The translations under genes were made by a program, and so were the position numbers. Below the pieces are notes generated by a model. That model was not told the DNA's origin. It saw only the letters and a program-made list of their open reading frames with translations, and did no database searches. From an uncultured Acidimicrobiaceae bacterium (GTDB lineage: Bacteria; Actinomycetota; Acidimicrobiia; Acidimicrobiales; Bog-793): a DNA stretch of 64,000 bases. This document shows, piece by piece, positions 2,920 through 24,860 of the stretch. The stretch lies in the NCBI GenBank assembly GCA_963841155.1, contig CAWJBM010000002.1:247454-311453 (forward strand), read 5' to 3'. Within the stretch, counting starts at the first letter, position 1, and the number at the start of each line of letters is the position of its first letter.

Positions 2920-2966
2920 ACTACGGATCAGAAGGTTGGGGATTCGAGTTCCTCCGAGCGCGCTGA
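2920..2966 (+). repeat. tRNA-Arg(ACG)-like 3' half (anticodon loop to discriminator); left att-type direct repeat
   Basis: Sequence ACTACGGATCAGAAGGTTGGGGATTCGAGTTCCTCCGAGCGCGCTGA. It reads as anticodon loop CTACGGA, stem strand TCAGA, variable AGGTT, T-arm GGGGA/TTCGAGT/TCCTC, acceptor strand CGAGCGC and discriminator G. No D-arm or 5' acceptor (GCGCTCG) lies upstream, so this is not an intact tRNA. It is 46/47 identical to 24814..24860. Confidence 0.75.
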
Positions 2967-3079
2967 CCAGGGATTATGTACGGCGAGAGAATCTAATTAG
3001 GGTGGCACAGCGCAGGCTAAGCGTCTAATATGTACCCTCAGGCAGGGCCGTTAGTGGCCCTGACCAGGAGGGTCGGGCA

Positions 3080-4006
3080 ATGAGTAAGGCGCTTGACATC
3101 GAGGGGCTGGACACGATCGAAGCCGTGCTTCCGGACTTCTCACTCTCGCTGCGAGCACGCAACCGCTCGCCTCGCACGGTCCAGAGCTACTGCGAGGCCG
3201 CGAGGCTGTTCGACACCTACTTGACCGAACGTGGCATGCCGCGGAACCTTCGGAACATCGGTCGCGAACATGTCGAGGCATTCATTGACGACCAGTTGAC
3301 TCGGCGCAGTCACGCGTCGGCCGCTGTCCGCTTTCGCTCGCTTCAGCAATTCTTCCGCTGGGCGAAGGAAGACGGACAGATCACCGCGTCGCCGATGGCG
3401 AACATGTCGCCGCCGTCCGTCACCGCTCCCCCGGTCCCGGTCGTGAAGGACGACCACTTCAGGCTCTTGCTCAAGACCTGCGAGGGCAAGACGTTCGAGG
3501 ACTACCGCGACGCCGCGATCCTGTCACTGCTCTTTGACACTGGCGCTCGGCTGAGTGAGATCACCAACCTCCGACTCTCAGACGTGGACAACGGCGAGAT
3601 GCCGCAGATTCGTGTCATAGGCAAGGGTCGACGCGCTCGGTCGGTTGACTACGGCGTCAAGACTCGCAAGGCACTTCGCAACTACGAGAAGGCGAGATCA
3701 CTGCATCCGCTCGCAAACCTCGATTGGCTGTGGCTCGGCAGTCGCGGCAAGCAACTCACGCAATCGGGCATCGCTCAGATGTTGCGCCGTCGTTGCCGCG
3801 CGGCTGGCATCCCCGAACTTCACCCGCACATGTTCAGACACAGCTTTGCTCATTCGTGGCTCGCCAGCGGTCGCGAAGAGGGCGACCTGATGCGACTCGC
3901 CGGCTGGTCGTCCCGTGACATGTTGCAGCGCTACGGTGCCAGTGCCGCCGTTGAGCGTGCACACGACGCCTACCGCCGTGGTGGCTCGCCGGTAGACCGC
4001 CTGTAG
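3080..4006 (+). CDS. int: Tyrosine recombinase / phage-type integrase (XerC/D-like)
   Basis: 308 aa. Catalytic motifs: ARLSEITNLRLSDVD (Arg), HPHMFRHSFAHSW (H-x-x-R), LAGWSSRDMLQRYGA (Tyr). It starts 113 bp downstream of the tRNA-half repeat. Confidence 0.9.
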   Translation: MSKALDIEGLDTIEAVLPDFSLSLRARNRSPRTVQSYCEAARLFDTYLTERGMPRNLRNIGREHVEAFIDDQLTRRSHASAAVRFRSLQQFFRWAKEDGQITASPMANMSPPSVTAPPVPVVKDDHFRLLLKTCEGKTFEDYRDAAILSLLFDTGARLSEITNLRLSDVDNGEMPQIRVIGKGRRARSVDYGVKTRKALRNYEKARSLHPLANLDWLWLGSRGKQLTQSGIAQMLRRRCRAAGIPELHPHMFRHSFAHSWLASGREEGDLMRLAGWSSRDMLQRYGASAAVERAHDAYRRGGSPVDRL

Positions 4007-4346
4007 GCAGCTGGGGTGCCCATGTCAGACCTTGTCAGTCCAGGGTTTTGTTCGTGAAGGACATGCTCAACGTCGACTGGGTCGAGGTCCCGGGCGGTGT
4101 GCTTATCCGAGGCACCACCCGGCAGACGAGGCCGACGATGTTGTCTGTCGTCACGCCGACTAAGGCCTCCCCTGTTCCTACTTTGCCAAGGAGTTGCTAT
4201 TGGGCCGAACGGTGATCGGCGACCTGTCGTCGTCGCGGCCGAGCACATCACCAACGTGGGAGCTGGCAATGGCCAATGGCGAGTGCTCGTTACTACCGAG
4301 GCGATTCGCGGGTAAACCATACCCTTGTCGCTAGACGTCCCTACGC

Positions 4347-4388
4347 AGCCTGTTCCGCAGGTTCTGGGTTCGAGTCCCAGGGGGCCGC
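4347..4388 (+). other. Second tRNA-like 3' fragment (variable-arm hairpin + T-arm + acceptor strand), no 5' half
   Basis: AGCCTGTTCCGCAGGTT forms a hairpin. It is followed by CTGGG-TTCGAGT-CCCAG (canonical T-arm) and GGGGCCG + C. I could not fold an anticodon arm, D-arm or complementary 5' acceptor from the 90 nt upstream. Confidence 0.5.
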
Positions 4389-4511
4389 ACGAAAGCCCCG
4401 ATCACGGCGGTTTCGGGCATGGTACAAAGCCTCCGTTCCGGGTCCGGGGAGCCAATCTGGGAGCCAGTTGAGACCCGCTGCCCCTCTCTCTGGCCAGCAC
4501 GAAACGCCAGC

Positions 4512-5409
4512 TCACACCGCGATCGTGTCCTGGCGCGCCCGGGTGCAGGCGACGTACAGCTTCCGATGGGTGTCGTCCTCGACAGAAAGTCCTGCTTGCA
4601 GCGCTGCCTCTTCACTGGCCGCAAGCCGCACGGCGACAGTCTCCCACTCGCGTCCTTTCGCCTGGTGGGCAGTAAGTCCTGGAACCGGTCGGCCAGCTCG
4701 CAGAAGCCGCTTCGAGACTTCTGCGAGCCGCCCTGTGTGGGCAGGGTGAGCGCGCCGCATCACGCGAGGGGAAACCTCACGCATCACTTTTGTGAGCGCC
4801 TCGTATGAGCGTTTCAACGATTGGGGGTCCTTTACCCGGAGCAGGTCCACAACCTCCTGGAGGTCGGTCTCTAGCTGCCTCGGTAGTTCGGGATCGGCAA
4901 TGGCGAGAGCCGTAAGCGCTTCGCGCAAATAAGTCGCGTCCTCGTTGAAGATATGCCGAGTGATGTGGTTCAGGAGAAGCGTGGCGGCCGCTTCTTCGAC
5001 CCCCCCTTTGAAGGTGTGGAACGCGAGGGGCAAGACCTCGGGACCCACTTCCCACAGCGGTTTCCAGAAGAGGCTGAGCACGACGTCTGTCCGCTCATGC
5101 CAGGCGTCGTCAGTCGACAAAGTCACCGACTGGCCTGCTCGTAGGCGGTCGGCGAGATCTTCCTGCTTCTTGGTCCGCCATCGGAAGGAGCGCGTGAGCG
5201 GCATTGTCTGAAACTGTGCGCGCCTAAGAAGCTCATGGACTCTTTCGGGTCTGGCTCCACGGAAGAGGTAAAGCGCCTGCCAGGGGTCTCCTACCAGCGT
5301 CACGGAGATACCGCCGGAGAGGGCAAGCTCGATCACCTGCAGGTCAAGGTCGTTCGCGTCAAAGATCTCATCGACGATGAGGGACCGTGTGGTCTCAGCG
5401 AGTCGGTTA
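4512..5409 (-). pseudogene. UvrD/PcrA-like superfamily-1 helicase, C-terminal part only, truncated at the IS1380 end
   Basis: The reading frame is open up to the IS boundary: ..SLIVDEIFDANDLDLQ (motif II-like DExx), GDPWQALYLFRGA (motif III), TAHQAKGREWETV (motif V), YVACTRAR (motif VI). No Walker A region is present anywhere nearby. Confidence 0.8.
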
Positions 5410-7085
5410 CTAACCTCGATTATTCGCGCGATAGCGGCATGAAGCTGCCAGTATCCGCGTAAAAGGCCTCCTCAACTGGGAGAATGGCTGTGTTCCAAAG
5501 CAGCTCTCCAACCCAGGAGGAGGCCTCCTTGAAGGTGCATCGTAGCCGCTCGGTCCGCCGGGTCGAGGTAACCACCGACGGGCGCAACCTCGTCTCGCAC
5601 GCGGGCACCGCGTTGTTGTGCGAACTGGCCGATCGCACAGGGTTGACACACGGGTTGTCCGAGGCGATGGCCGACTGCGGCATCTCGTGGAACACCCACG
5701 ACCCGGGCGTCGTGCTCACTCACCTCGCCGTCGCCATCGCGGATGGGGCCGACTGCCTCAAAGACATCGACGCACTTCGCAAGCAGTCCGAGCTGTTCGG
5801 AGAGGTCGCGTCGATCTCGACCGCGTGGAGGGCGGTGAAGGCCACGGCGTCGCTCGAGCTGCGCCAGATCCCAAGGGCCGTGGCAAAGTCACGGGAGATC
5901 GTCTGGGCCGCGGCACCGCCGGGCGACATCACGATCGACTTCGACGCCACGCTCGTCACCGCGTTCTCCGACAAGCAGGACGCTCGCCCGACGTACAAGC
6001 ACGGTTATGGCTTTTACCCGCTCGGCGCCTGGTGCGACACGACCGTAGAGCCGCTCGGGGCGATGCTCCGTCCGGGTAACGCCGGCTCGAACGACGCCGA
6101 CGATCACCTCGAGTTGTTGGACCAGGTGATCGCCGCCCTCCCGCCGGAGTACCAGGTAGGTCACCAGCCCGGCGACGACCCGAGCCTTGTCCGACATCAC
6201 ATCCTTGTGAGGGCCGACTCGGCCGGGGCGAGCCACGACTTTGTCTCTGGCCTTGTGGAAGCCAACATCGAGTACTCGATCGGCCACCCGGTCGACTCAG
6301 GCGTGCGAGAGGCCTTGTTGTTGTTCCAAGAAGAGGACTGGGTCGGAGCGCTCGAGGCGGACGGGACCGACCGGGACGGTGCATGGGTGGCCGAGCTCAC
6401 AGATCTCATGGACTTGTCGGCCTGGGGTGAGGACGCACGGCTCATCTGCCGGCGAGAACGCCCTCACCCAGGGGCCCAGCTCAGCTTGTTCGACACCTCG
6501 GAGGGTTTTAGGCACACGTGTTTCATCACGAACGCGAATGCCTTGAACATCGACGCCGCTGCACTCGAGCTTCGTCACCGCGGCCATGCCCGCGTCGAGG
6601 ACCGGGTCCGGTGCTGGAAGGACTGCGGGTTACAGAACCTGCCGTTCGCGAGCTTCACCCAGAACCTCGCCTGGGTGGCCACCAGTCTCATCGCCGGGGC
6701 GCTTATCGCCTGGGCGCAGATGACCTGCCTCGACGGCGAGCTCGCAAAGGCCGAGCCGAAGACGATCCGCTACCGGCTGTTGCACGTCGCCGCCGTCCTC
6801 GTGCGCCGTGGGCACCGGCTCATCTTGCGCCTGGACGAGACATGGCCGTGGGCAGCACCGCTCAGGCGAGCATTCCTGAAGTTGCGGACCGCGTTCCCCT
6901 GACGAACAGGGTCCCGGCGCCCGACCCGGCCACGGTGAGTCTCCCGAGGGCGTGACATCCGACAAGAGCACGAAACTCTGACTCGTCGCGCCCTGCCACG
7001 ACCGGGCGCCCTCACCGTCACCCCATCGTCACGACTCGACCGCTCGCCGTCAGCTTCCCGAGGCAAGATGAATTCTCGAGGTTAG
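5410..7085 (+). mobile_element. IS1380-family insertion sequence, copy 1
   Basis: Terminal inverted repeats are CTAACCTCGAT.. (left) and ..CTCGAGGTTAG (right). The ends were also delimited by alignment to copy 2 (20973..22651). There is no matching flanking direct repeat. The left flank is helicase coding sequence and the right flank is an rve-transposase remnant. Confidence 0.8.
5484..6902 (+). CDS. IS1380-family DDE transposase
   Basis: 472 aa. The N-terminus ..VTTDGRNLVSHAGTALLCELADRTGLT..HDPGVVLTHLAVAIADGADCLKDIDALR..ELFG.VAS..TAWR is the typical IS1380 architecture. Confidence 0.85.
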   Translation: MAVFQSSSPTQEEASLKVHRSRSVRRVEVTTDGRNLVSHAGTALLCELADRTGLTHGLSEAMADCGISWNTHDPGVVLTHLAVAIADGADCLKDIDALRKQSELFGEVASISTAWRAVKATASLELRQIPRAVAKSREIVWAAAPPGDITIDFDATLVTAFSDKQDARPTYKHGYGFYPLGAWCDTTVEPLGAMLRPGNAGSNDADDHLELLDQVIAALPPEYQVGHQPGDDPSLVRHHILVRADSAGASHDFVSGLVEANIEYSIGHPVDSGVREALLLFQEEDWVGALEADGTDRDGAWVAELTDLMDLSAWGEDARLICRRERPHPGAQLSLFDTSEGFRHTCFITNANALNIDAAALELRHRGHARVEDRVRCWKDCGLQNLPFASFTQNLAWVATSLIAGALIAWAQMTCLDGELAKAEPKTIRYRLLHVAAVLVRRGHRLILRLDETWPWAAPLRRAFLKLRTAFP

Positions 7086-7232
7086 GAGCACCGTCCGCGT
7101 CGCGGCCTGGATCAGAAGGCGCTGGGGACCTTGGGGCTTGTGCCGGACCCGATCGATGAGCCCGACTTGACGCCGTTACGACGAACCGAGATCCTCGACG
7201 GCCTCATTCATGAGTACCGCCTCTTGGCGTGA
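7086..7232 (+). pseudogene. C-terminal remnant of an rve (IS481/IS3-type integrase-core) transposase
   Basis: In-frame from the IS1380 boundary: EHRPRRGLDQKALG...LRRTEILDGLIHEYRLLA*. This matches the classic ..YN.HRPH..L....RR..LGGLIHEY..AA* tail. Confidence 0.65.
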
Positions 7233-7388
7233 CCTGGTCGGATCGATTCTCGGCAGGCACAGGTATCGATGAACCTCGCCAACGCAGATGACGCCCCAGG
7301 AATCTTGACAACCCACCCCGCCAGCGCGAAACTGCACTTCAGGGGTACCTCCTCTCATTCACACCCTTTCTCAGCGACGGAGGGCGCT

Positions 7389-8422
7389 ATGCCCATTTCG
7401 CGACTTGTGAGGCGCTTTCCTCGGCGGTCCCTCGCTATCACCGCGGCCCCGTTGTGTACTGCGCTTGCACTTCTTTCTCTAGTCCTGGCTCCCGCGCATG
7501 CGTTCGCCTCCGACAGTCCGGGCAATTACTACTATGGTGCAGATAGTGGCAATCCCACAGCGCTGGGGACCGGACCCTATACGATGCCAACGGTGGGCGG
7601 AACGTTTGGAGTATACGTGGCTGAGGACGGACCTGGTCTGATATGCAGGGATGTGCAAGTTACAAGTATAGACTGATTAGCAATACTGATGTGACGGCCG
7701 CTAATTGGGAGTTCACCTCCCTGTACGGCTCAGTAGGTGAGCCGTGGCCCGAAGGCGCCGCCATGTATTGGTATATGGCTGGTCCTGGAGCCGACCCTGA
7801 GTACAATCCGAGCACGTACACCCTTGCTGAAGCGACAGCCTGGGGGAAAGAGCAGGCCGAAGCCGCGAACAGCTGGTGGCTGGCTCATGGACCCGGGATC
7901 ACTTCGGGCGTAGTGTTTATGGATATAGAGGGTGGCTATACCGCTGATGGAGTAAACTACGCGAACGGGTGGAATGAATGGGTGTACAGTTCTGGTACCG
8001 ATTGCGGAGAGATCATCTCTAGTGAGGATATACCGCCCGCCATCGATCGCGGGGTTGTGAATGGTTTTGGAACCTGTATCGACGGGCAGACCTTGACTTC
8101 CGCCGTCTACTCATCTCCCGATTACTGGGCAGAAACGTTCGGCACGTGCAGCAGCTCTAATCGTCCTGCCTGTCTTACTGAGACTCCCGAATGGACATCG
8201 GAGGGCGACTCGGGTTGTGCACTACCCGGTCCACATGGATGGGCTCAGGCTGCTGGTGTCTGTGGTGCGGAATCGGGCACGTTTTTCGGTGATGTTGGCA
8301 GCACTTACCAGCTCGGATGGCAATGGTGTGAAGCCAGTAGTCTTGACGACTATTGCAACCTCAACAATCAGCAGGACGCCGATTTCGATCAGTCCGATGC
8401 CTCCAACTGGCCGCTTGGCTGA
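7389..8422 (+). pseudogene. Secreted DUF1906-like (glycoside-hydrolase-like) protein, frameshifted
   Basis: ORF 7269..7676 supplies SD GGAGGG, ATG 7389 and a signal peptide (..ALALLSLVLAPAHAFA). ORF 7643..8422 supplies the rest. The two overlap in different frames between 7625 and 7676, so one shift there would join them. The region is visibly AT-richer than its surroundings. Confidence 0.6.
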
Positions 8423-8457
8423 TGAAGAGACTTAGCAGAATGGGGAGCTGAGAGTCC

Positions 8458-9204
8458 GTGATGGCGAGACGTGGCTACAGGAAATATCGGGGTCTGATGG
8501 TTGTCGGACTGCTGGTTTTGTCATTGATAGTGATAGTGGTGGCGCTTGGTGCGCCGGCCAGAGGCGTGTTGGCGCGAGTTCAAGCTTCGTCGCTTCGTAA
8601 TCATGCGGCTCGAGAACCGGCGGGCCGTACCGCGTCTCGGTCTAGGTCCAGGGAGGTCGCTGACGCGTCCGATCCCGTGTGTGCCGCGGGTCAGCTGGCT
8701 TTGTCGAGTCAACTTTACCAAGTGGGTATGCCGGGTGCCTTTGAGATCTATTCGATAACAAACGTGGGAGTCACGCCATGTAGCTTGGTGGGCGCGCCGA
8801 TCTTCGCCGCTAAGAATGCTGACGGACAGGCGGTCGAAGCCGACTCCGAGACTTTTAGCAATGCGGCGGGTGGCGCGGTGGAGAGCAGTGTAGCGGGCGA
8901 CCCAGTGGATCTTTCGCCGGGGGCGAGCGGTTCTTTCGCGGTGTGGTGGCAGAATTGCTCAGACCCCGTTCCCAGTTCCGGGTTGACGTTGCAAAACGTA
9001 ACCACGATTTGGACGTTCTCCGGTCAGGAGGCTGGGATCACTCGAGTCATGCCGAATGCCACGGTTAGCTGCCCGAATGTGGTTCTCGTGGCTTCTGAGA
9101 TTGAGCCTGGAGTCATGTCGAGTCCGCCTTGGTTGCCAGCGCCTTCAGCTGGGTTGCCGCCGGGAGGTGTTGCTCCGACCGAAGGTTCGCTGAGGAGCAA
9201 CTGA
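8458..9204 (+). CDS. Membrane-anchored secreted protein, DUF4232-like
   Basis: N-terminal TM segment (MVVGLLVLSLIVIVVAL). Then C..GQLAL....GMPGAFEIYSITNVGVTPCSLVG.P, a paired-Cys pattern typical of DUF4232. Confidence 0.55.
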   Translation: MMARRGYRKYRGLMVVGLLVLSLIVIVVALGAPARGVLARVQASSLRNHAAREPAGRTASRSRSREVADASDPVCAAGQLALSSQLYQVGMPGAFEIYSITNVGVTPCSLVGAPIFAAKNADGQAVEADSETFSNAAGGAVESSVAGDPVDLSPGASGSFAVWWQNCSDPVPSSGLTLQNVTTIWTFSGQEAGITRVMPNATVSCPNVVLVASEIEPGVMSSPPWLPAPSAGLPPGGVAPTEGSLRSN

Positions 9205-9226
9205 CGCACGCTGAGTGGGCCTTCCT

Positions 9227-9242
9227 GTACGCGCGTGCGTAC
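9227..9242 (+). terminator. Possible hairpin terminator after 8458..9204
   Basis: GTACGC-GCGT-GCGTAC is a perfect 6-bp stem followed by TTAT. The U-tract is weak. Confidence 0.3.
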
Positions 9243-9366
9243 TTATCGCAGTTGGCTACCTGCCCAGCTTGACAGGTGGCTGTAGCAATGAGAGCCGGGT
9301 GAACAAGTGTTGAGCCGATATCGGAGTCTGGCCGGATTTATAGGGGCGAGAAAAAGCCGATCCTCA

Positions 9367-10452
9367 ATGTGGACCCCACCTAGCGGACCGATCGGTACTG
9401 GAGTGTGGGTTCCCGTCGGCGCCGCTCTTCTCATTATGTTCTCTTCCTGCACGAGCGCGTTGCCGCACGGATCCCGCACTACAACACGACATGCACCCCG
9501 ACCGTCGGTCGAGATCACGGGATTCCGCTGGAGCCAGGTTCAAACGAAAAGTGCTCCGCCGCCACGGGTCATGGCGCAGATGGCCTACGATACCGCTAGC
9601 GCTCAGCTGATCTTGGTCGGCGGCGAGCGCCAGGTCGAGACCCAATCTACGCCGATCATAAAGGCCACAGCCCTCGACGACACCTGGGTTCTCTTGGGAA
9701 CCACCTGGATTCGCCTTCACCCCATCACTTCGCCTCCAAAGGAACCGCTTACCGCCGCGTACGATCCCGCCAACAGGCAACTGATCCTCATCGCGGCGCC
9801 TCTGCGCACTCGGGCCGGGCGAGTGCTCCCTTCTACCACGTGGACGTGGAGAGGACGGACCTGGTCGAGGCTTGCTGGAATGACGCCGAACCCGGGCACG
9901 AACGGCGAGGACATGGCATACGACTCGGCCACGCGTCAGCTCGTGTTCGTCGGTGGAGGCACCTGGGTGTTGAGAGACTCAAAGTGGCGTCGCGTGTCGG
10001 TTCTGCAACCAATGATTACGGCCATTGCGTTCGACCCATTGAGCGACAGACTCGTGGGCGGCTCAAGTCAGAGCGAGCGCATGTGGTGGTGGGACGGGCG
10101 GCAGTGGAGGGAGTACGCAGAGCCGCCAAGCTTGGAGCTGAATCCCGTGTACAACCCGGAGCCGTCGGCCAACTGGGTCACAGACACTGCGGTCAACGAA
10201 ATCTTCGTCGAGGGCGACTGCGGCTTCACGCCAAGCGGCAAGCAGGCATACGCTTGTACCTGGAGCGGTGATGTCTGGGTCCCGATTCTCACGGCGTCCA
10301 CTCCTGCGATTGACAATCCCGAGAACTTCTCTCTTGCCTACGATCCGCCACTCCACGCCGTTGTCGCCTTTGGAGGTGACCAAGGAGTGCGAACCCCTGC
10401 CGGTGACTGGATCGTTGGAGGCAGTCAGACCTGGTTTCTGACCCATGGCTAG
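9367..10452 (+). CDS. Kelch-like beta-propeller lipoprotein candidate
   Basis: Lipobox-like LLIMFSSC. Repeated units of the form ..MAYD.A..QL.LVGG....DTW.L.G..W.. (Kelch-type). Confidence 0.6.
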   Translation: MWTPPSGPIGTGVWVPVGAALLIMFSSCTSALPHGSRTTTRHAPRPSVEITGFRWSQVQTKSAPPPRVMAQMAYDTASAQLILVGGERQVETQSTPIIKATALDDTWVLLGTTWIRLHPITSPPKEPLTAAYDPANRQLILIAAPLRTRAGRVLPSTTWTWRGRTWSRLAGMTPNPGTNGEDMAYDSATRQLVFVGGGTWVLRDSKWRRVSVLQPMITAIAFDPLSDRLVGGSSQSERMWWWDGRQWREYAEPPSLELNPVYNPEPSANWVTDTAVNEIFVEGDCGFTPSGKQAYACTWSGDVWVPILTASTPAIDNPENFSLAYDPPLHAVVAFGGDQGVRTPAGDWIVGGSQTWFLTHG

Positions 10453-10659
10453 GTGTAGGGCACCAGTATTCCGATCGCTCATCGGAGCGCCAGATGCAGG
10501 TCGGCTTCGGGAAGAGCGCCCCGGATTGTCTTTGAAAGTGGCGCGCGACCCACCAGCGATTGCGCTGTCGTCATCCGGTCGTCCAATTGAGAAGGCCAAT
10601 GCCGGGTGACCGCAAACGGAGCGACCAGAGGTGTGGACAATTCGGCCAGCGAGAAGCTC

Positions 10660-10870
10660 GACTACGCGGCGGCTTGGTACTCGTGGATGATCCCACCCAG
10701 CACGTCGCGACGGCCGATGTCGCTGAACGATGAGGCAGCAGAGGTCACTGCGCTGAGTGGTGCGGGCACTTGGAGTCGAAGGCCGAGGTGAGGCCGATGC
10801 TGGTTGTAATGCCGGACGTAGTCGCGAAGGACGGCTTCGAGATGGGGACGGCCGAGAACGAGCGTGTTGG
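10660..10870 (-). pseudogene. C-terminal remnant of a second rve-type transposase
   Basis: Minus-strand translation: ..TLVLGRPHLEAVLRDYVRHYNQHRPHLGL...RRDVLGGIIHEYQAAA*. The upstream limit is ambiguous because it abuts or overlaps the IS256 remnant. Confidence 0.65.
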
Positions 10871-11344
10871 GTGCATAAATCCGCCAACATCCTCGATGCC
10901 CTGCCCAAATCCATCCAGCCGCTCGCGAGGAAGATGCTCGCCAAGGTGAGAGACGCCGAGGACCGTGAACATGCCCGAGACGCCGCCAAGGCCTTCGACA
11001 ACGAGTTCCATGCCAAGTGGCCGAAGGCCGCCGAAAAGCTCCGCGACGACCTCGAGCCGTTGTTGTGCTTCTTCGACTTCCCCGCCGAGCACTGGGTGCA
11101 CCTGAAGACCTCGAACCCGATCGAGTCGACCTTTTCGACCGTGAGGCTCAGGACAAAAGTGACCAAGGGCCCGGGCTCGCGAGCTGCCGGGCTCGCCATG
11201 GCCTTCAAGCTCATCGAGGCCGCAGAGGACCGCTGGCGTTACGTCAACGGTGCCGCGCTCGTCGCTCTCGTGCGCGCAGGTGCAACGTTCCGAAAGAGGG
11301 TATTGGTCGAGACCGTTGCGAAACAGGAGGAGGTCGCCGCGTGA
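10853..11344 (+). pseudogene. IS256-family (Mutator-type) transposase, C-terminal fragment
   Basis: ..RACWVHKSANILDALPKS..EFHAKWPKAAEKLRDDLEPLLCFFDFPAEHWVHLKTSNPIESTFSTVRLRTKVTKG.. is the conserved IS256 C-terminal half. The N-terminal half is absent. Confidence 0.8.
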
Positions 11345-11776
11345 TCAGCGGGTCGGGCCGATCCACAACTTTTGACTATTCCTCTCAGCCAACGCTCCGA
11401 GACCTGTACGGTCGTGGTCCGACTGCCACTTTTGCAAGGTCTCCGGCGGGTAGTCGTGAGGTCTGATGCGATCGACGAGGTCGTGGTGGGGCTTGCAGAG
11501 CAGCACCACGTTTGCGTAGGCGGCTCGTTTCTCATCTGACATATTGGGGTCGTACCGAGCGGAGTTCGGCTTCGCACCCCGGATGTGCGAGATGTGCACG
11601 TTGACGACCGGGACACCCTCCGCGAACTCGATCACCGGTCGATGGCATCCGGGGTAGTAGCAGGTGCCCTGCGAGAGGGCGAAGAGCGCTTTCTCCGTTC
11701 CGCTTCTGTAGTCACGGGGCCCGGGCATCGGCAAGCAGTCTACGGAAACCCTGTGACTGCCTTGCCTCGTGCTCAT
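11345..11776 (-). CDS. HNH endonuclease
   Basis: 143 aa. CYYPGCHRP....VHISHIRGAKPNS.RYD....NVVLLCKPHHDLVD is a His-Me finger pattern. Confidence 0.75.
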   Translation of the reverse strand: MSTRQGSHRVSVDCLPMPGPRDYRSGTEKALFALSQGTCYYPGCHRPVIEFAEGVPVVNVHISHIRGAKPNSARYDPNMSDEKRAAYANVVLLCKPHHDLVDRIRPHDYPPETLQKWQSDHDRTGLGALAERNSQKLWIGPTR

Positions 11777-12183
11777 GCCGGTTTACGACACGGACGCCAC
11801 AGGTCAGGTGATCTGGGTGCTTCCGCTGGTAACTACGATGCAGGCGCTCAAGCGCGTAATCGGCGTGATGAGTGGGTGGCCGTGCAGGGCAGGGGGCTCG
11901 GCTCTCGGCGCGCCGCTCGAAGCACTCTCAAACCCCTCACCGGGCGTCGTCGATCCCGATATCACACGTCAGCGTCGGGGCATTCTCCTCGGACAAGGGC
12001 ATAAAGTTGATCGATCCGTGCACTGACCTCGTGGTTCGAGAATCATCCCATCATCTCCCACAGTAACCGCGAGCACGCCGCGCGTCTGGAGGAAGGAGAA
12101 CTTGACTCGGACGCAGCACGCTAGTACAACCCCGAGAGGAGGCAGAAGATGTCACAGGGATAAGCGCGCTATAACTTTGGTTG

Positions 12184-12210
12184 CCCTCGCCCTCTGGGCG
12201 GGGGTTTTTT
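12184..12210 (+). terminator. Rho-independent terminator
   Basis: CCCTCGCCC-TCT-GGGCGGGGG forms 9 bp with one G-U pair, followed by TTTTTT. A 4-codon mini-ORF (ATG 12149, MSQG*) with SD GAGGAGG sits 20 nt upstream. Confidence 0.7.
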
Positions 12211-17336: not shown

Positions 17337-17387
17337 CCTGGACCGAATGATCAAGTCGATGAAAGGAAAGCGCAGTGTCAACCATGT

Positions 17388-17728
17388 CCGGCCGGCCCCA
17401 CAAGGCACGGGTTCTCCCGGGCATCGATCCACTCGAGCGATGCCAGGTAGTCAAAGGTCCCCCGTGGGATCGAGGAAGCGTGCACGTCGAAGTCCTCGAG
17501 CGACTTCGAGACGGGAAAGCGTGCTTGTTTCAACCTCGCCATCGCGTTGGAGGCGTCCCTGCTCTCGATCTCGGCTTCGACGAGGGTCCGCAGCAGCTCC
17601 ACCGGCGCCCAGCGCTGGGTCTTGGCGACGGCGAGGACATCGGGCCCGATGCGGCGCATGGTGGCGAGCTTGAGACGCCGCAGGCCTGCCACGAGATCGG
17701 CGGGCAGCTCGGCCGGCGGGGCGCTCAT
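17388..17728 (-). pseudogene. istB: istB, N-terminal part
   Basis: MSAPPAELPADLVAGLRRLKLATMRR...FDYLASLEWIDARENPCLVGPAG, then runs into the cassette. The ATG overlaps the stop of the upstream small ORF (ATGA). Confidence 0.85.
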
Positions 17729-17988
17729 GAGGTGGTCTCCATGAGCCGGCGGGCGAAGTGCAAAAGTGCCGAGCGAAGCTCGCACACGCCGTAGCCGGGG
17801 GCATATGCCTGCATGGCCGCGTGCATGAGTCGGGGCTCGGCCTTCAACCAGCCGGCCACGAACTCGAGCATCTCGGCGCACTCGTATCTCTCCTCGGGTG
17901 CGAGCACCTTCGAGCTTTCGGGGCCATCGACATGCTCGACGCCCTCCTCGTTCGGATCAAGCCCGGAGCTTCCCTGCGGCGGGGTCAT
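17725..17988 (-). CDS. Hypothetical 87-aa protein encoded between istA and istB
   Basis: GC3-rich codon usage. Its ATG 17988 overlaps the istA stop (ATGA) and its stop overlaps the istB ATG 17728 (ATGA). No family recognised. Confidence 0.6.
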   Translation of the reverse strand: MTPPQGSSGLDPNEEGVEHVDGPESSKVLAPEERYECAEMLEFVAGWLKAEPRLMHAAMQAYAPGYGVCELRSALLHFARRLMETTS

Positions 17989-19445
17989 CGGAGCTCTCCG
18001 AAGCCGTAGGCGGACAGGGGCCTGGTGGGAACTTCGGGGAAGGCGGCACTGAGCGGCTCGCCGACCGCCTGCAGGCGGGGCACACCCGCGCCGGCATCGA
18101 GGATGGAGCGCACATCGGCGAGGGAAAAGCGCGAGTAGGTGGTCGCCCGCTCGAGTGCACAGATAAGCGCGTCGCGTCCGTAGGCGCTCTCGAGGGCCAC
18201 GATGGCCCCGAGCTCGCCGCCGAGCTTGCTCGCACCGCCCGCCGCCGCGGCCTTCAAGAACGCCATGCCCACCTCGCCGAGACCGACCATGGCGTGCTCG
18301 GCCGCGGTACGAGGCCGGGGCGCCCGCTGCGGTAGAGGCCGCGGACCGCCATAGTGGTCGTCGTTGATGGACGTCTCACCCGGTGCCACGAGATCGTGCA
18401 AGGCCATCTCGACGCCGAGATGCACGACGGCGAGCTTGCCGCCGGCGACCTCCACCTCGACCTGCTTTCCGATGAGGCGCATCGGGACCGAGTAACGGGC
18501 CGAGCCGAAGCGCACGCAGCTGAGCTTGTCCACCTTTCGGATGACCGCCTTTGCGACGCGGGGGCGCAGCGACGGCAACGGGGAGAACAGCGGTGCTTCG
18601 ACCCTGAGCCGCTCGGTGGGAATCGCACAGATCTCCGAGTGCTCGACGCAGTTGACCTCCTCGCACCACGCGGCCGCGGCGACATTGGCCGAGGCGAGGT
18701 CGAAGAACGGGACCTGCGGGACCATGAGGTCGGCCTTGGCGTAGCCCACGAGGTTCTCGACCAGTCCCTTCGACTCCGGGTCGTTGGCCTCGCAGAAATC
18801 CGGCCGGAAGCGATAGTGGGCGGCGAAGCGGACGTAGGCCGGTGTCGCCACGACGAGGTTGGCCACCACGCCTGCTTTGAGGCAACCCATGCGATCGGCC
18901 AGCACCACCTTCGGCACCCCGCCCAGGAGCTCGAAGCAATCGATCAGCATCGAAAGCGTCGTGTCGGAGCGCTCGTTGTCCGAAAAGCGCACAAAGCGCC
19001 ACCGGCTCCAGGCCGACACCGCACAGAACACGTGCAGGCCGAACTCCGAGCCCCAGTCGATGACGAGTGTCTCGCCCGGGCTCCAGATCGCCGGGCGCCG
19101 TCCCCGGTGGTGCTCGTCGCGCCAGTCGCTCTTTGTCCTGGCGACAAGACGTCGGAAGTTGCGGGCCGAGCCGGTGTAGCCGGCGGCGCGTGCCTCGGGC
19201 AGGAGACGCTTGGCCGAGATGCGCCCGCTCGTCTTTCTCACCTTGGTGGCCACGATGCCCGCGACGACGTCGTAGTTCCTCTTGCGCTCGGCCGCCTTGT
19301 CTTGAGTCGCGTCCCGTTCTTCGCGTTTGAGCACTGCACGCTTCACGGTCCGGTGCGTCGTGTTGCAGATTGCTGCGGCGCCCCGGTAGCTGCCCACCTC
19401 TCGGTAGGCGGCGATGATGTCCATTGTCTGCCTCACTGATTTCAT
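17985..19445 (-). CDS. istA: IS21-family transposase IstA
   Basis: MKSVRQTMDIIAAYREVGSYRGAA.. (HTH) followed by an rve-type core ..VIDWGSEFGLHVFCAVSAWSRWRFVRF... I chose ATG 19445; the listed ORF extends further 5'. Confidence 0.9.
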   Translation of the reverse strand: MKSVRQTMDIIAAYREVGSYRGAAAICNTTHRTVKRAVLKREERDATQDKAAERKRNYDVVAGIVATKVRKTSGRISAKRLLPEARAAGYTGSARNFRRLVARTKSDWRDEHHRGRRPAIWSPGETLVIDWGSEFGLHVFCAVSAWSRWRFVRFSDNERSDTTLSMLIDCFELLGGVPKVVLADRMGCLKAGVVANLVVATPAYVRFAAHYRFRPDFCEANDPESKGLVENLVGYAKADLMVPQVPFFDLASANVAAAAWCEEVNCVEHSEICAIPTERLRVEAPLFSPLPSLRPRVAKAVIRKVDKLSCVRFGSARYSVPMRLIGKQVEVEVAGGKLAVVHLGVEMALHDLVAPGETSINDDHYGGPRPLPQRAPRPRTAAEHAMVGLGEVGMAFLKAAAAGGASKLGGELGAIVALESAYGRDALICALERATTYSRFSLADVRSILDAGAGVPRLQAVGEPLSAAFPEVPTRPLSAYGFGELR

Positions 19446-19607
19446 GGTTCTGTCCTCCGGTCGGAGCGGTGTTTGGTTGGCACCGCCACCGTGTCCGGCC
19501 GGAGGGCACGAACGGTGGATGTTCAGTGAGGGGTGGGTACCTCTACATGGCCACGAGTGGGTACCTCGTCCTGGCCACACGCGGGTACTTTTTCATGGCC
19601 ACGGACA

Positions 19608-20095
19608 AGACGTGTCCCCCTACGCGTGAGCTGAACGCCCTGGTCAGGCGATTTCGGCCTTGGACCAGGTCGAGGTGTCGACGGAGAGGGCCCGGAGCAC
19701 CTTGGCCTAGAGGGCGCTGCGCCGGTTCACGAGCTTGATCTGGCAGTCGCCGGCGGAGATGTGCTGTAACCGGACCTCTTTCAACACCGAGAGGGCCCGC
19801 CGTGGCGTCATCGACTGGAAGGCCAGGTTGGGATCGGTCAGCTTCGCGTTCACGAGGTCTTGTGCCATGACGGCCTCGATGGTGGCCGCTAGCACGCAGA
19901 GCGCCACGTGTCCGCGCACCCGGGCCTCGGTCCAGTGGAACATCGGCCGCAGCGACAAGAAGTCCCTCATCACCCGGAAGCGGCGTTCGATTGACTGCAG
20001 GCTCTTGTAGTAGCGCAGCACCTGGGCGGCAGAGGCCTCTGAAGTCGTCAGCGATGTCGTGATGACGAGGCGCCCGAAAGGAACAGGTCAGGAAC
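19608..20095 (-). pseudogene. IS1634/IS4-like transposase 3' remnant (copy A)
   Basis: ORF 19707..20021: LRYYKSLQSIERRFRVMRDFLSLRPMFHWTEARVRGHVALCVLAATIEAV... is the C-terminal DDE-E region. DNA-level homologue of 33040..33531 in inverted orientation. The right limit is approximate. Confidence 0.7.
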
Positions 20096-20972: not shown

Positions 20973-22651
20973 CTATTAGCCTCAAAAATCCGTGCGACCC
21001 CGGGAAACTGACGGCGAACGGTCGAGCCGTGACGATGGGGTGACAGTGAGGGCGCTTGGCCGTGGCAGGGCGCGACGAGTCAGAGCTTCGTGCTCTTGTC
21101 AGATGTCACGCCCTCGGGAGACTCACCGTTGTCGGGTCGGGCGCCGGGACCCGGGTTGTTATGGGAACGCGGTCCGCAGCCTGAGAAATGCTCGCCTGAG
21201 CGCTGCTGCCCACGGCCATGTCTCGTCTAGGCGCAAGATGAGCCGGTGCCCACGACGCACGAGGACGGCGGCAACGTGCAACAGCCGGTAGCGGAGCGTC
21301 TTCGGCTCGGCCTCTTTGAGCTCGCCATCCAGGCAGGTCATCTGCGCCCAGGAAAGCAGCGCCCCGGCGACGAGACTCGTGGCCACCCAGGCGAGGTTCT
21401 GGGTGAAGCTCGCGAACGGCAGGTTCTGTAACCCGCAGTCTTTCCAGCACCGGACCCTGTCTTCGACGCGGGCATGGCCGCGTTGGCGAAGCTCGAGTGC
21501 AGCGGCGTCGATGTTCAAGGCATTCGCGTTCGTGATGAAACACGTGTGCCGGAAGCCCTCCGAGGTGTCGAACAAGCTGAGCTGGGCCCCTGGATGAGGA
21601 CGCTCTCGCCGGCAGATGAGCCGTGCATCTTCACCCCAGGTGGACAAGTCCATGGGATCTGTGAGCTCTGCCACCCATGCACCGTCGCGGACGGTCCCGT
21701 CCACCTCGATGGCTTCGACCCAGTCCTCTTCTTGGAACAACAACAAGGCCTCCCTGACACCTGAGTCGACAGGGTGCCCGATCGAGTACTCGATGTTTGC
21801 CTCCGTGAGGCCGGAGACAAAGTCGTGGGTCGCCCCAGCCGAGTCGGCCCTCACGAGAATGTGATGTCGCACCAGGCCGGGGTCGTCACCGGGCTCGTGA
21901 CCTACCTGGTACTCCGGCGGGAGAGCGGCGATCGCCTGGTCCAACAGCTCGAGGTGATCATCGGCGTCGTTCGAGCCGGCGTTGCCCGGACGCAGCATCA
22001 ACGCGAGAGGCTCTCCGGTCGTGTCGCACCAGGCGCCGAGGGGATGAAATCCATAGCCATGCTTGTACGTCGGGGCAGCATCCTGTTTCTCCGAGTGAAC
22101 ATCAACAAGCGTGGCGTCGAAGTCGATCGTGATGTCACCTTGTGGCGCCTCGGCCCAGACGATCTCCCGTGTCTTTGCCACGGCCCCTCTGATCGCGCGC
22201 AGCTCTGGAGCGGTCGTGGCCTTCACCGCTCTCCAGGCGGTCGTCACCGACGCGACCTCTCCAAACAGCTCGGACTGTTTCCGAAGCGCGTCGATGTCTT
22301 TGAGGCAGTCGGCTCCGTCGGCAATGGCGATGGCGAGATGGGTGAGGACCACGCCAGGATCGTGGGTGTTCCACAAGATGCCGCAGTCGGCCATCGCCTC
22401 GGACAACCCGTGTGTCAGCCCAGTGCGATCGGCCAGCTCCGACAGCATCGCGGTGCCGGCGTGCGAGACGAGATTGCGGCCGTCGGTGGTGACCTCGGCC
22501 TGACGGACCGAGCGGCTACGATGCACCTTCAAGGAGGCCTCCTCCTGGGTTGTTTGACTGCTTAGGAACACAGTCATTCTCCCAGTTGAGGAGGCCTTTT
22601 ACGCGGATACTGGCAGTCTCATGCCGCTATCGCGCGAAAAATCGAGGTTAG
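20973..22651 (-). mobile_element. IS1380-family insertion sequence, copy 2 (inverted relative to copy 1)
   Basis: Aligns to copy 1 end to end. The outer end is ..ATCGAGGTTAG and the inner end is a degenerate CTATTAGCCTC... No flanking direct repeat. Confidence 0.8.
21159..22577 (-). CDS. IS1380-family DDE transposase
   Basis: 472 aa, collinear with 5484..6902. Roughly nine-tenths identical by eye, with substitutions scattered throughout. Confidence 0.85.
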   Translation of the reverse strand: MTVFLSSQTTQEEASLKVHRSRSVRQAEVTTDGRNLVSHAGTAMLSELADRTGLTHGLSEAMADCGILWNTHDPGVVLTHLAIAIADGADCLKDIDALRKQSELFGEVASVTTAWRAVKATTAPELRAIRGAVAKTREIVWAEAPQGDITIDFDATLVDVHSEKQDAAPTYKHGYGFHPLGAWCDTTGEPLALMLRPGNAGSNDADDHLELLDQAIAALPPEYQVGHEPGDDPGLVRHHILVRADSAGATHDFVSGLTEANIEYSIGHPVDSGVREALLLFQEEDWVEAIEVDGTVRDGAWVAELTDPMDLSTWGEDARLICRRERPHPGAQLSLFDTSEGFRHTCFITNANALNIDAAALELRQRGHARVEDRVRCWKDCGLQNLPFASFTQNLAWVATSLVAGALLSWAQMTCLDGELKEAEPKTLRYRLLHVAAVLVRRGHRLILRLDETWPWAAALRRAFLRLRTAFP

Positions 22652-22729
22652 GTAGAGGCTCGTCACCGTCTGACACCTTGTCGGCGCCGGTCTCGTTCGC
22701 AACCAACACCACGACGCTCAAGGAGACCA

Positions 22730-22945
22730 ATGGCCAATACCGACGCCCTGCCGCAGCTCCTCACCATCGACCAGCTCGCCGAGCGGCTCGGTGTGAGCGT
22801 CCGCCACATCCGCCGGCTCATCGCCGAACGACGGGTGCCCTACCTGAAGGTCGGTTGGTTCATCAGATTCGACCCGGCCGAGATCGCCGCCTGGCTCGAC
22901 GGTGCTCGGCACCCAGAACACCTCGACCACGGGCGACGGGTCTGA
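22730..22945 (+). CDS. Excisionase-family helix-turn-helix DNA-binding protein
   Basis: 71 aa. LLTIDQLAERLGVSVRHIRRLIAERRVPYLKVGWFIRFDPAEIAAWL is an HTH_17/Xis-type pattern. Confidence 0.75.
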   Translation: MANTDALPQLLTIDQLAERLGVSVRHIRRLIAERRVPYLKVGWFIRFDPAEIAAWLDGARHPEHLDHGRRV

Positions 22946-23029
22946 CCTTCAGAAGATCGTGACGACCGTCGGCCGAGTCTATACTCGAAGTTGGCGTAAA
23001 TACACGTAGAACGTGAATAAGGGACCAGC

Positions 23030-23809
23030 ATGGCGACTGATCGAAGTCTGAGGCTTCTGGACAAGCTTGCTAGCGAGGGGCGTACAGCCTTCACGGCGTC
23101 TGAGATCCAGGACGCCCTGGAGCTGTCGCCGCAGGCGACGTCCAACGTGCTGGGTCGACTCGTCGAGGCCGGCTTCATCGATCGCGTCAGCTCTGGACGC
23201 TACGCCATCCGTCAAATCGGGGCCCTCGGTACCGCGGCTGTTTGGGACGACCTCGGCTCTGCCGTCGCGGCCGTCTTCGCCGGTCACCCCCATCGGATCG
23301 GTTATTTGACCGCCCTGGATCATCACGGCCTCCTGATCCGGCCGGTGAGGGCGATCCAGGTCGCGAGTGCCTATCGACCCCGCTCGAAGGCCCTTGCCGG
23401 CAGACCGCTCAGAGTGATTCGCGAGAACCCGTTGACGGTACTCGCTGGTACCGAGCCGCTGGGCCCATCCCGGGTGGCCACCGTGGAGAGGGCTCTCCTT
23501 GATGCCGCGTCACGGCCAAGACTGGTCAGCGGCGCCTCGCGAGTTGCCGAGTCCCTAGCGGCCGTCATGGCTACAGAGGGACTTGTAAAGTTGGCTCATG
23601 CGGTGGGTGCCGAGGCCGGATACCGGCGGATCGGCTCGATCAGCACCGCGCTGTCGCTCCCCGTCGGTCATGGGCTTGAACCTGAGCCGTGGCGAACTCT
23701 TGTGGACCTGGATACCACTGCCCAGCATGAGCATGGATGGGTCGACAGAACCTGGGGCGTCGCCTGGCCCTACCCCGTCTCCCAGCTCGAGGCGGTGGTC
23801 TCCTCGTGA
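23030..23809 (+). CDS. abiEi: AbiEi-family antitoxin / transcriptional regulator
   Basis: 259 aa. N-terminal wHTH (FTASEIQDALELSPQATSNVLGRLVEAGFIDRV) plus a C-terminal AbiEi-type domain. Its stop overlaps the downstream GTG (GTGA). Confidence 0.75.
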   Translation: MATDRSLRLLDKLASEGRTAFTASEIQDALELSPQATSNVLGRLVEAGFIDRVSSGRYAIRQIGALGTAAVWDDLGSAVAAVFAGHPHRIGYLTALDHHGLLIRPVRAIQVASAYRPRSKALAGRPLRVIRENPLTVLAGTEPLGPSRVATVERALLDAASRPRLVSGASRVAESLAAVMATEGLVKLAHAVGAEAGYRRIGSISTALSLPVGHGLEPEPWRTLVDLDTTAQHEHGWVDRTWGVAWPYPVSQLEAVVSS

Positions 23810-24624
23810 TCGCCAAAGGCGTCATCACCAGACGCGCCAACGAGGAACAGCTCTCGGCCCAGACGATCGAACGTGACTACATCCTCGCTCATCTGTGTGC
23901 CGAAATCGGCTCCATCGGGGAACCGAGGCTCGTTTTCAAGGGTGGGACGTTGCTTCGCCTCTGTTACTTCTCCGGTTGCCGGTACTCGGCTGATCTCGAC
24001 TTCTCGGCCGTGGATGGCCTCTCCAACAACGAGGCGCTCGGCATCGTCGCGACTGCAGCGGTGTCCTGCAAAATTCGCACCGAGCTTCCGATGCTCGAGG
24101 TCTCGGACGGGGATAGTGCAACGGTGTGGGTGACCTACACGGGTCCCCTCGGATCGAGGCCTCGCAGGCTCAAGCTCGACGTGTCCGATACTGAGCTGGT
24201 CGAGTCCCATCGTCGGCTCGACATACAGCACCTATGGGCCGACCTTCCCGAGAACGCCGGCATCGAGGGTTACAGCCTCCGCGACGTCGCGGCCGAGAAG
24301 ATCCGCTGCATTGCCGAGCGGCTTCAGTGCCGAGATCTGTACGACCTCCACGAGCTGCTCGACGGCGGACACGTCGATCCTCTCGAAGCCTGGCATCTGT
24401 ACCTCGACAAGGCGGCTAACGACGTGTTGAGGAGTCGACAGCGAACGCCGCCGGCGAAGTGGTTCGCCACCTTCGAGCGGCGCATGGATGCCTACCGGGA
24501 CCGGTGGGAGAGCGAACTGAGCGACTACATCTCGGTAGATCTTCCGACCTTCGGCGATGTTGAGCGACGAAGCCGCCGCTACCTCGCGCCAGTGCTTGCC
24601 GCGGCACGAGATCTTGCAGAGTGA
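23806..24624 (+). CDS. abiEii: AbiEii/AbiGii-family nucleotidyltransferase toxin (DUF1814)
   Basis: IERDYILAHL...LVFKGGTLLRLCYFSGCRYSADLDFS... is the hallmark FKGGT..L...R.S.DLDF. GTG 23806 was chosen from the GTGA overlap with abiEi. Confidence 0.8.
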   Translation: MIAKGVITRRANEEQLSAQTIERDYILAHLCAEIGSIGEPRLVFKGGTLLRLCYFSGCRYSADLDFSAVDGLSNNEALGIVATAAVSCKIRTELPMLEVSDGDSATVWVTYTGPLGSRPRRLKLDVSDTELVESHRRLDIQHLWADLPENAGIEGYSLRDVAAEKIRCIAERLQCRDLYDLHELLDGGHVDPLEAWHLYLDKAANDVLRSRQRTPPAKWFATFERRMDAYRDRWESELSDYISVDLPTFGDVERRSRRYLAPVLAAARDLAE

Positions 24625-24813
24625 CGGGAGCGGGCGCTGAAAAAGGCCCGCCCGTGAGAACCGCCGTGAGAACCATAGCTCCGCCAAAGCCGGAAAAAGG
24701 AGGTGACGGGCGGTTGTCGGCGGTCGTGTCGGTTCGGATGAAGTCACTGGTAGAGGGCACTATTGGTAACGAATTGCCACGACCGGTTTCCAAAGGAAAA
24801 TGCCCCGGGCAGA

Positions 24814-24860
24814 ACTACGGATCAGAAGGTTGGAGATTCGAGTTCCTCCGAGCGCGCTGA
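24814..24860 (+). repeat. tRNA-Arg(ACG)-like 3' half, right att-type direct repeat
   Basis: Matches 2920..2966 at 46/47 positions. The single difference (A at 24834) breaks a T-stem pair. No tRNA 5' half lies upstream. Confidence 0.75.

Follow-up and report, generated by a model that had tools for sequence, protein, structure and literature searches.

Orphan tRNA-Arg(ACG) 3′ segments as probable attachment cores of a decayed tandem array of integrative elements in peat-bog Acidimicrobiia

Actinobacterial integrative elements (AICEs), of which pSAM2 and SLP1 are examples, are one of the known systems with which the locus described here can be compared. AICEs at tRNA genes have been surveyed (PMC3218068). 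Integrative and conjugative elements (ICEs), integrative and mobilizable elements (IMEs) and cis-mobilizable elements (CIMEs) accrete in tandem at the 3′ end of their target gene, as documented for ICESt1-related elements of Streptococcus thermophilus and for the IME_Sag2603_tRNAlys composite (PMC5704250), and the ssrA islands of Dehalococcoides lie in tandem downstream of a single-copy small-RNA gene (PMC3146451). Here, we analyze a stretch of 64,000 nt from an uncultured Acidimicrobiaceae bacterium (the window; assembly GCA_963841155.1, contig CAWJBM010000002.1, positions 247,454 to 311,453), in which two orphan 3′ halves of tRNA-Arg(ACG) bracket an integrase-bearing segment of 21.9 kb. We consider it very probable that these repeats are attachment (att) cores in a tandem array of integrative elements targeting the tRNA-Arg(ACG) gene of peat-bog Acidimicrobiia. 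The array is an ordinary, decayed one at a tRNA gene, a kind that is already well known.

The 47-mer ACTACGGATCAGAAGGTTGGGGATTCGAGTTCCTCCGAGCGCGCTGA is found on the + strand at 2920–2966 without mismatch (left copy, core1) and, again on the + strand, at 24814–24860 with one mismatch (right copy, core2), the two copies being identical at 46 of 47 positions. No third copy with up to three mismatches is present within the window, where 0 matches are expected from 100 shuffles. Alignment to intact genes elsewhere shows that the repeat corresponds to tRNA-Arg(ACG) positions 31–73 plus four nucleotides (CTGA). It starts with the final base of the 5′ strand of the anticodon stem, covers the anticodon loop (CUACGGA), the variable loop, the T arm and the 3′ acceptor strand, and ends with the discriminator G73 followed by CTGA. 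These limits were set because the intact tRNA of eight metagenome contigs (L002–L009; L-numbers, L001–L129, denote the contig stretches retrieved for comparison) reads GCGCTCGTAGCTCAATTGGACAGAGCATCTG followed by the 47-mer. The intact tRNA scores 65.8 bits against the Rfam tRNA model (cutoff 29), and the left copy is identical to the gene at all 47 positions. Both the direct repeats and their span from anticodon loop to discriminator had been described in a sequence-only reading of the window, and both are borne out.

Two peculiarities of the T stem noted in that reading are likewise real. G53:C61 is near-universal in tRNAs. The A53:U61 closing pair seen in both copies is nevertheless the native state of this lineage, the same 3′ half occurring in 24 intact genes of Acidimicrobiia metagenome-assembled genomes (MAGs). 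The tRNA-Arg(ACG) genes of L002–L009, of 24 of the stretches L011–L042 and of L118 have A53:U61, a G50·U64 wobble pair and no encoded CCA. The single substitution of the right copy, G to A at 24834, falls on tRNA position 51 and turns the G51:C63 pair of the T stem into A·C. It recurs in every other assembly of the same junction and lies in a copy outside any gene, the last recognisable one in the window. A 13-nt match to the acceptor end at 48370–48382 was considered as a fourth copy and rejected as chance because its context lacks a T-arm.

Neither copy has a 5′ half, as had been stated. ARAGORN finds no tRNA gene in the window and Rfam none at its gathering threshold; the covariance model places no tRNA over either copy, and around the left copy at E≤10 it returns only two chance matches. 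The best matches to tRNA positions 1–30 anywhere in the window are chance ones of 10–11 nt.

An intact gene is found farther to the left. A 16.4-kb NCBI metagenome contig (L001), 100% identical to window positions 1–5602, carries a third, perfect orphan copy (copy 0) at −1624..−1578 (negative coordinates lie left of the window), which is confirmed in three further assemblies (L115–L117). Exact look-up of the glycoside hydrolase GH66 protein (P0121) led to a 512-kb contig (ERZ25039544 contig_9051), whose locus L115 is 99.9% identical to the window from −6920 to 7944, and look-up of the exact neighbouring recombinase (P0241) led to locus L118 on the same contig. In L118, ARAGORN identifies an intact tRNA-Arg(ACG) at −16576..−16502, 16.5 kb left of the window and in the orientation of the orphans. 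This gene is identical to the tRNA of L002 at 77 of 77 positions, and farther upstream, in the same orientation, a tRNA-Ser(GCT) lies at −22344..−22255. The intact tRNA, copy 0, copy 1 (2920–2966) and copy 2 (24814–24860) share one orientation and are spaced by 14,922, 4,544 and 21,894 nt, delimiting three units of 14.9, 4.5 and 21.9 kb; no further core copy is found from −13750 to 64000. The locus has a recombinase at one end of a unit, direct repeats of a tRNA 3′ segment, an intact tRNA at its head, and serial units separated by att copies, one of which (unit 2) lacks an integrase. The sequence-only reading had favored a tandem island array with the intact tRNA-Arg to the left and the fibronectin type III (FN3) gene at the left window edge in another island. 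This is upheld on the long contig, the FN3 gene being bracketed by orphan copies 4,544 nt apart (−1624..−1578 and 2920–2966), with the correction that the tRNA is separated from the left copy by two units instead of one.

Comparison of strains provides evidence of exchange at the cores. In eight contigs (L002–L009), the integrase module of unit 3 (int308, described below) directly follows a tRNA-Arg(ACG) that ARAGORN calls as intact. Identity of these contigs to the window begins exactly at 2920 and amounts to 99.9%, with three shared single-nucleotide polymorphisms. In six of them (L003–L008), the stretch up to and including the tRNA, with a DDE_5 transposase gene and a DUF6788 gene, also matches contig_9051 at 99.9% identity; L003, for example, is 99.9% identical through the tRNA (L118 17027–15012) and then continues as the window from 2920 onward. 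Compared to L003–L008, the window strain has an additional 19.47 kb, comprising units 1 and 2, and the switch occurs inside the 47-nt core. Because L003–L008 pass from the tRNA context to window position 2920 and beyond inside the 47-mer, units 1 and 2 together are present in one strain and absent from others at the cores. In L002, which lacks the DDE_5 insertion, this integrase module occupies the canonical locus; the canonical upstream tRNA context is absent from the window plus 6.9 kb.

The core recurs in other genomes of the class. When species-representative genomes were scanned for exact matches to 43 nt of the core, 32 stretches were recovered, all from Acidimicrobiia MAGs and many from peat or bog samples such as SPRUCE; the same 43-nt core has no match among IMG/VR viral contigs. 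Twenty-four matches are intact tRNA-Arg(ACG) genes, usually downstream of tRNA-Ser(GCT), and at least 11 are orphan 3′ halves, to which BLAST adds five near-exact orphans. Each orphan core is preceded by one of three conserved arm classes (a, b and c). Downstream of the cores stand left arms of a few types, and several of these run into integrases of different lineages: relatives of int308 (L030, L040), a 390-aa integrase with an Arm-DNA-bind_4 domain (L039, L036, L029, L025), and further types (L034, L038, L041, L028, L032). Arrays of two to three copies spaced by 0.9–3.4 kb occur in L013, L015, L017, L023, L025 and L031. As the core in the 32 stretches is either an intact tRNA-Arg or an arm-preceded orphan, it does not behave as a dispersed repeat unrelated to integrases.

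From this anatomy, we infer how the array may have been built. Each element would bring its own copy of the tRNA 3′ segment. A tyrosine recombinase would pair the P-core-P′ site of the element with the tRNA gene, strand exchange occurring at or near the anticodon loop, where the identity begins. The element-borne 3′ segment would then complete the tRNA, and the old 3′ segment would stay at the far end as an orphan. Later arrivals, with different integrases but one target, would use either the rebuilt tRNA or an att site inside the array, as has been described for the accretion of ICEs, IMEs and CIMEs (PMC5704250) and for the ssrA islands of Dehalococcoides (PMC3146451). Copy 1, which joins unit 2 to unit 3, is such an internal att site. 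Copies 0 and 1 are perfect compared to the gene and copy 2 has one change, which fits copy 2 being the oldest. Excision is predicted to leave characteristic junctions: class-c arm-core-CCAGGGATTATG for a unit-3 circle, class-b arm-core-GCTAGTCGAAG where unit 3 has been lost, and class-b arm-core-CTGGGTAAAGTCC for a circle of units 1 and 2.

Unit 1 (14.9 kb) begins directly past the intact tRNA-Arg with the N-terminal two-thirds of its own (e-type) integrase. This gene is split by a 4,745-bp mobile element, and its C-terminal end lies on the other side, the final 80 codons standing directly left of the sugar-operon block in L115. The 4,745-bp element (L118 9252–13996, equivalent to −15484..−10740) contains a 187-aa open reading frame (ORF), a 356-aa tyrosine recombinase (int356), an HTH_26 protein and ORFs of 448 and 297 aa. 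Copies of it (L119–L125) are 99.6–99.9% identical and occur in at least seven different genomic contexts. The int356 family is very abundant on short contigs, its matches including Streptomyces proteins at 70–71% identity. The remainder of unit 1 comprises a neocarzinostatin-like gene, a cargo operon in the order ROK, GH15, substrate-binding protein (SBP), permease, permease, GH66 and malK′, and a class-b-like arm: the sequence preceding copy 0 is homologous to the class-b arm, though divergent (alignment A2).

The SBP-permease-permease-GH66 part of the operon is syntenic with many Acidimicrobiales contigs, and its malK is truncated after ∼9 codons (L001 5007–5033, equivalent to −1914..−1888; alignment A3). 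After GH66, relatives carry either a full malK or quite different genes; the downstream boundary of the operon is therefore a recurrent breakpoint. A metagenome scan with the SBP protein found relatives at ≤90% identity only, none of them from the population of the window. On a related peat contig (L101), a full orphan core (485–527), inverted, adjoins the ROK end of the same sugar operon and is preceded by an arm with GCAGCC..TTGGCA(G/T)CCAAG repeats. Upstream of ROK in L057 and L058, again in inverted orientation, the arm is as in L101 and is followed by just the first 12 nt of the core (ACTACGGGTCAG). This remnant could be the footprint of recombination at the anticodon loop with a non-tRNA partner.

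Unit 2 (4.5 kb, −1577 to 2919) lacks an integrase and contains the FN3 gene and a solo ISL3 end alone. The FN3 gene (1–2678 in the window, − strand) is represented by the N-terminal 892 codons of a 1253-aa secreted-type protein with an Rv2525c-like glycoside-hydrolase domain and FN3 repeats (Pfam on L001 and L115); its reading frame is supported by a signal in third-position GC content (GC3) and by a gene call. Both ends of the window lie in genes of ∼270–273-nt tandem units (Ig/FN3-like; 1–2678 and 63220–64000), with three units of 92–96% identity at 63409–64000 and several of 63–83% identity at 1–1700. A solo ISL3 terminal repeat of 35 nt (L001 5542–5576, equivalent to −1379..−1345) stands in inverted orientation between copy 0 and the FN3 gene, on the 3′ side of the latter; it is identical at 34 of 35 positions to the left end of the complete ISL3 element at 25842–27280. 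Its position suggests an ISL3-associated deletion inside unit 2. The unit ends in the class-b right arm (P arm; 2782–2919, + strand), a conserved element end of ∼140 nt directly upstream of the left copy, which holds a TGCTAC(T) repeat (two copies) and is 85–86% identical to the sequence upstream of orphan copies in MAGs L017 and L031.

Unit 3 lies between copy 1 and copy 2. Its left arm (P′; 2967–3079, + strand) begins with CCAGGGATTATG and includes the region upstream of the integrase, and the same arm follows an intact tRNA-Arg or orphan copies in L013, L019, L020, L022, L030, L031 and L040. The ATG of the integrase is at 3080, 113 nt past the end of the repeat, as had been noted. The encoded protein, int308 (3080–4006, + strand; 308 aa), is a Xer-like tyrosine recombinase consisting of a SAM-like N-domain (Pfam Phage_int_SAM_1) and a catalytic domain (Phage_integrase, 3.2e-26, profile positions 5–169 of 172); an arm-binding domain is absent. 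When int308 is aligned to a solved recombinase, its catalytic motifs, namely the conserved Arg, F-R-H-S-F and a terminal R-Y, are all in place. It falls below both NCBIfam equivalog cutoffs (XerC TIGR02224, 153.4 bits vs 335; XerD TIGR02225, 137.8 vs 330). An identical protein is encoded on at least 15 contigs, 10 of which came from exact protein look-up. The core and the int308 left arm form a block of ∼107 nt that is followed by a degenerate second copy in L013 (2780–2885), L022 (74–175) and L031 (1066–1171); the window has a single copy. Next to int308 lies the C-terminal part of an SF1 (UvrD/Rep-like) helicase (4512–5336, − strand; Pfam UvrD_C_2, UvrD_C and the end of AAA_30), its N-terminus cut off at an IS1380 copy. 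We considered this fragment as a relaxase remnant and rejected the idea, since comparison with the TrwC relaxase of L024 revealed no significant similarity.

The right end of unit 3 starts with a 71-aa excisionase-family DNA-binding protein (22730–22945, + strand; TIGR01764, 44.6 bits, cutoff 28.8; Pfam HTH_17) that is 97% identical in L024. It is followed by an AbiEi antitoxin (23030–23809, + strand; Pfam MarR_2, AbiEi) and an AbiEii toxin (23806–24624, + strand; Pfam AbiEii, 6e-29), which form a type IV toxin-antitoxin pair and are likely an addiction module of the element. The AbiE pair is 89–93% identical in L023 and L024, where it adjoins the same arm. This class-c right arm (P arm; 24652–24813, + strand) ends in GGAAAATGCCCCGGGCAGA and is conserved upstream of orphans in L023, L024, L025 and L037. 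Overall, the right-end module is 87–92% identical to L023 and L024. All 11 contigs that cover the right junction (L051–L053 and eight more) agree with the window in the arm, the A51 copy and the flank. Among strains, AbiEii is truncated by a 674-bp deletion (L126, L128 and L129, compared to window 23937–24610) or interrupted by another IS21 copy (L127); samples with the deletion also hold the tRNA-int308 junction type. In both variants, the core2 junction is unchanged.

Between these end modules lie 17 kb of DNA rich in insertion sequences (IS). Two IS1380 copies, at 5399–7084 (+ strand; transposase 5484–6902; Pfam DDE_Tnp_1_4, 5e-62) and 20977–22662 (− strand; transposase 21159–22577), form an inverted repeat of 88–90% identity and may represent two independent insertions or a composite transposon. 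The interior proper (7085–13450) consists of ORFs without a family match, a gene for a DUF4232 protein, and the beginning of a gene into which an IS21-family element (13451–19614, − strand) has inserted, and contains no phage, relaxase or conjugation families by Pfam and NCBIfam scans. The IS21 element carries istA (17985–19580) and a broken istB, whose Pfam-matched part is at 13610–14131 (Pfam rve/Mu-transpos_C_2 and IstB_IS21). Nested within it, in a 3.4-kb insert between istA and istB, is a 776-aa large serine recombinase (15006–17336, + strand; Pfam Resolvase, Recombinase and Zn_ribbon_recom) with C-terminal HTH_17/excisionase-like motifs. The gene hit by IS21 has an uninterrupted paralogue at 32716–33609, in which the flanks of the insertion (13391–13450 and 19615–20076) are contiguous (33015–33531).

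Past copy 2, the right flank (24861–27280, + strand) contains two copies of GGCAGCCAAG and a CGATCGAC palindrome, and resembles the flank of copy 0 (alignment A1). It includes a DUF433 gene (25021–25275, Pfam), an ORF of 185 aa on the − strand and the ISL3 element (25842–27280), which has inverted repeats and an 8-bp target duplication, CCATTGCG. L031 likewise has a DUF433 gene after one core copy, with another copy 1.1 kb further on. Beyond the flank are housekeeping genes, such as those for PntAB and 2-oxoacid:ferredoxin oxidoreductases, among which a further DDE transposase gene (582 aa) is located at 49937–51685. With two IS1380 copies, IS21, ISL3 and this transposase, the window is unusually IS-rich.

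The earlier notion of a 21.8-kb integrase island holds for the flanking copies and the integrase; rather than one intact island, however, the segment is an IS-riddled composite. We infer that in unit 3 the left end of an int308 element has probably been fused to the right end of a class-c mobilizable element. What lay between these ends, one internal core included, would have disappeared or been exchanged for other DNA around the IS1380 copies. The arm pairings seen elsewhere argue for this, as the int308 left arm pairs with arm class a (L013; L030/L016; L040/L028), and arm class c pairs with the 390-aa integrase (L025; L039/L037) and, in L024, with a TrwC relaxase. Similarity to related elements ends at both IS1380 copies: that to L024 begins at 22649, at the boundary of the right copy, and the helicase beside int308 is truncated at the left one. 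Alternatively, the 21.9 kb could be one element with later IS insertions, in which the left arm of int308 would naturally go with a class-c arm. An integrase gene on the left and an excisionase gene on the right make a normal layout for an element, int308 without an arm-binding domain may not care which arm is present, and an AbiEii gene is also found in the int308-arm unit of L013. Given the pairings and the IS1380 boundaries, we regard a single element as possible yet doubtful.

Several points weigh against the account of a tRNA-headed array with a fused third unit. The tRNA was seen on contig_9051 of another assembly, 99.9% identical over the 14.9-kb overlap, and not on the window's own record; two things link tRNA and window, namely this identity and the fact that the GH66 and int356 proteins are both recorded on a 745,943-bp contig, presumably the source of the window. 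The empty-site comparison proposed earlier succeeds for units 1 and 2, which are polymorphic together; for unit 3, neither an empty site nor an excised circle was seen in look-ups with AbiEii and DUF433, and the 11 right-junction contigs are all alike. The activity of int308 is putative. Finally, the fusion is deduced from arm pairings in a few other genomes, two of the pairs being known just as ends on one contig.

A more radical alternative to a decaying array is that the tRNA-Arg(ACG) locus acts as an integron-like exchange platform, at which integrase-less units of 0.9–4.5 kb with conserved ∼140-nt arms and a perfect 47-nt core are shuffled as cassettes by several unrelated integrases. If so, the FN3 gene and the sugar operon would be exchangeable cargo and not decaying debris. 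We hold this to be unlikely.

An assembly chimera, in which strains were joined via the shared 47-nt core or integrase module, deserves mention because the module occurs in two metagenome contexts (after the tRNA and after the FN3 unit) and because short-read contigs break at every IS, all those of the integrase module ending at the left IS1380. However, the order GH66-copy-FN3-copy-integrase is recovered in four assemblies: L001/L116 (16.4 kb), L117 (which ends just past the left copy), L115/L118 (512 kb) and the window. From 19.6 kb onward, L051, L052 and L053 repeat the right part, the 47-nt repeat is shorter than the k of 141 to which the ‘k141_’ in short-read contig names points, and the junction of class-b arm, core and int308 arm is also present in an unrelated MAG (L031). 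A chimera is thus very improbable. Slightly less probable still is an array cut from its tRNA by a chromosomal rearrangement, with the breakpoint in malK 1.9 kb left of the window. The syntenic sugar operon left of copy 0, the truncated malK and the lack of a tRNA within 13.7 kb left of the window would all agree with such a break; we reject it since the split integrase and then the intact tRNA-Arg lie further left on contig_9051. For the same reason, the operon is read as unit-1 cargo and the malK truncation as an internal cargo boundary. Finally, the second option of the sequence-only reading, a pseudo-att (secondary) site merely resembling a tRNA 3′ half and unconnected to a real tRNA gene, would account for the lack of a 5′ half at either copy in the window, but can be dismissed almost entirely, as both copies match the real tRNA over 46–47 of 47 nt and are joined to conserved arms, eight contigs have the identical integrase module next to an intact tRNA, the array on the long contig starts with such a tRNA, and insertion at a secondary site would be expected to yield, in place of two full copies, just the overlap region on one side.

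The tandem array at tRNA-Arg(ACG) has a close counterpart in the accretion of ICEs, IMEs and CIMEs. Common to both are successive integration at one att site, internal chimeric att sites, decayed integrase-less units that keep their att copies (unit 2 here) and distantly related integrases with one target. The host here is instead an uncultured peat-bog acidimicrobiian, the target is tRNA-Arg(ACG), no relaxase or conjugation genes are found in the units of the window, and neither excision nor transfer was seen. Among the unit-3 ORFs, we find no TrwC or other relaxase, type IV secretion system or FtsK-like family; a tblastn search of the window with the L024 relaxase returned nothing, and L024 does carry TrwC beside the same xis/AbiE module. 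Nor are structural, packaging or lysis Pfam families of prophages present, PHROGs not having been searched. In the Dehalococcoides ssrA islands, a direct repeat of the gene 3′ end bounds each island, integration modules lie at the left edge, integrase-less units are read as cis-mobilizable and conserved sequence adjoins the repeats, all as here. Those islands differ in having a 20-bp tmRNA repeat and a CcrB-like serine recombinase, compared to a 47-nt tRNA repeat and several tyrosine recombinase lineages at our locus. With AICEs, the locus shares a high-GC actinobacterial host, a tyrosine integrase with an HTH_17 excisionase-family protein and an att segment reaching from the anticodon loop to the tRNA 3′ end. 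Unlike AICEs, no FtsK/TraSA-type transfer gene or replication gene is found in the units of the window, and the relative L024 carries a TrwC-type relaxase, pointing to mobilizable elements instead. XerC and XerD are the best-scoring named families for int308 and have the same size and two-domain architecture. Unlike these dimer-resolution recombinases, int308 sits 113 nt from a tRNA-derived att site and moves with its element between contexts.

The relevance of these findings is mainly to annotation, with little beyond. In genome scanning, orphan tRNA halves without a nearby 5′ half usually indicate that the window examined cuts through an array. For the Acidimicrobiia themselves, at least four integrase lineages compete for the single tRNA-Arg(ACG) site, and metabolic cargo rides in the units, namely a GH66/ABC sugar operon and a large FN3 glycoside-hydrolase-like protein. 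The locus provides a well-resolved example of tandem accretion in peat-bog Acidimicrobiia, a lineage whose mobile elements have barely been described.

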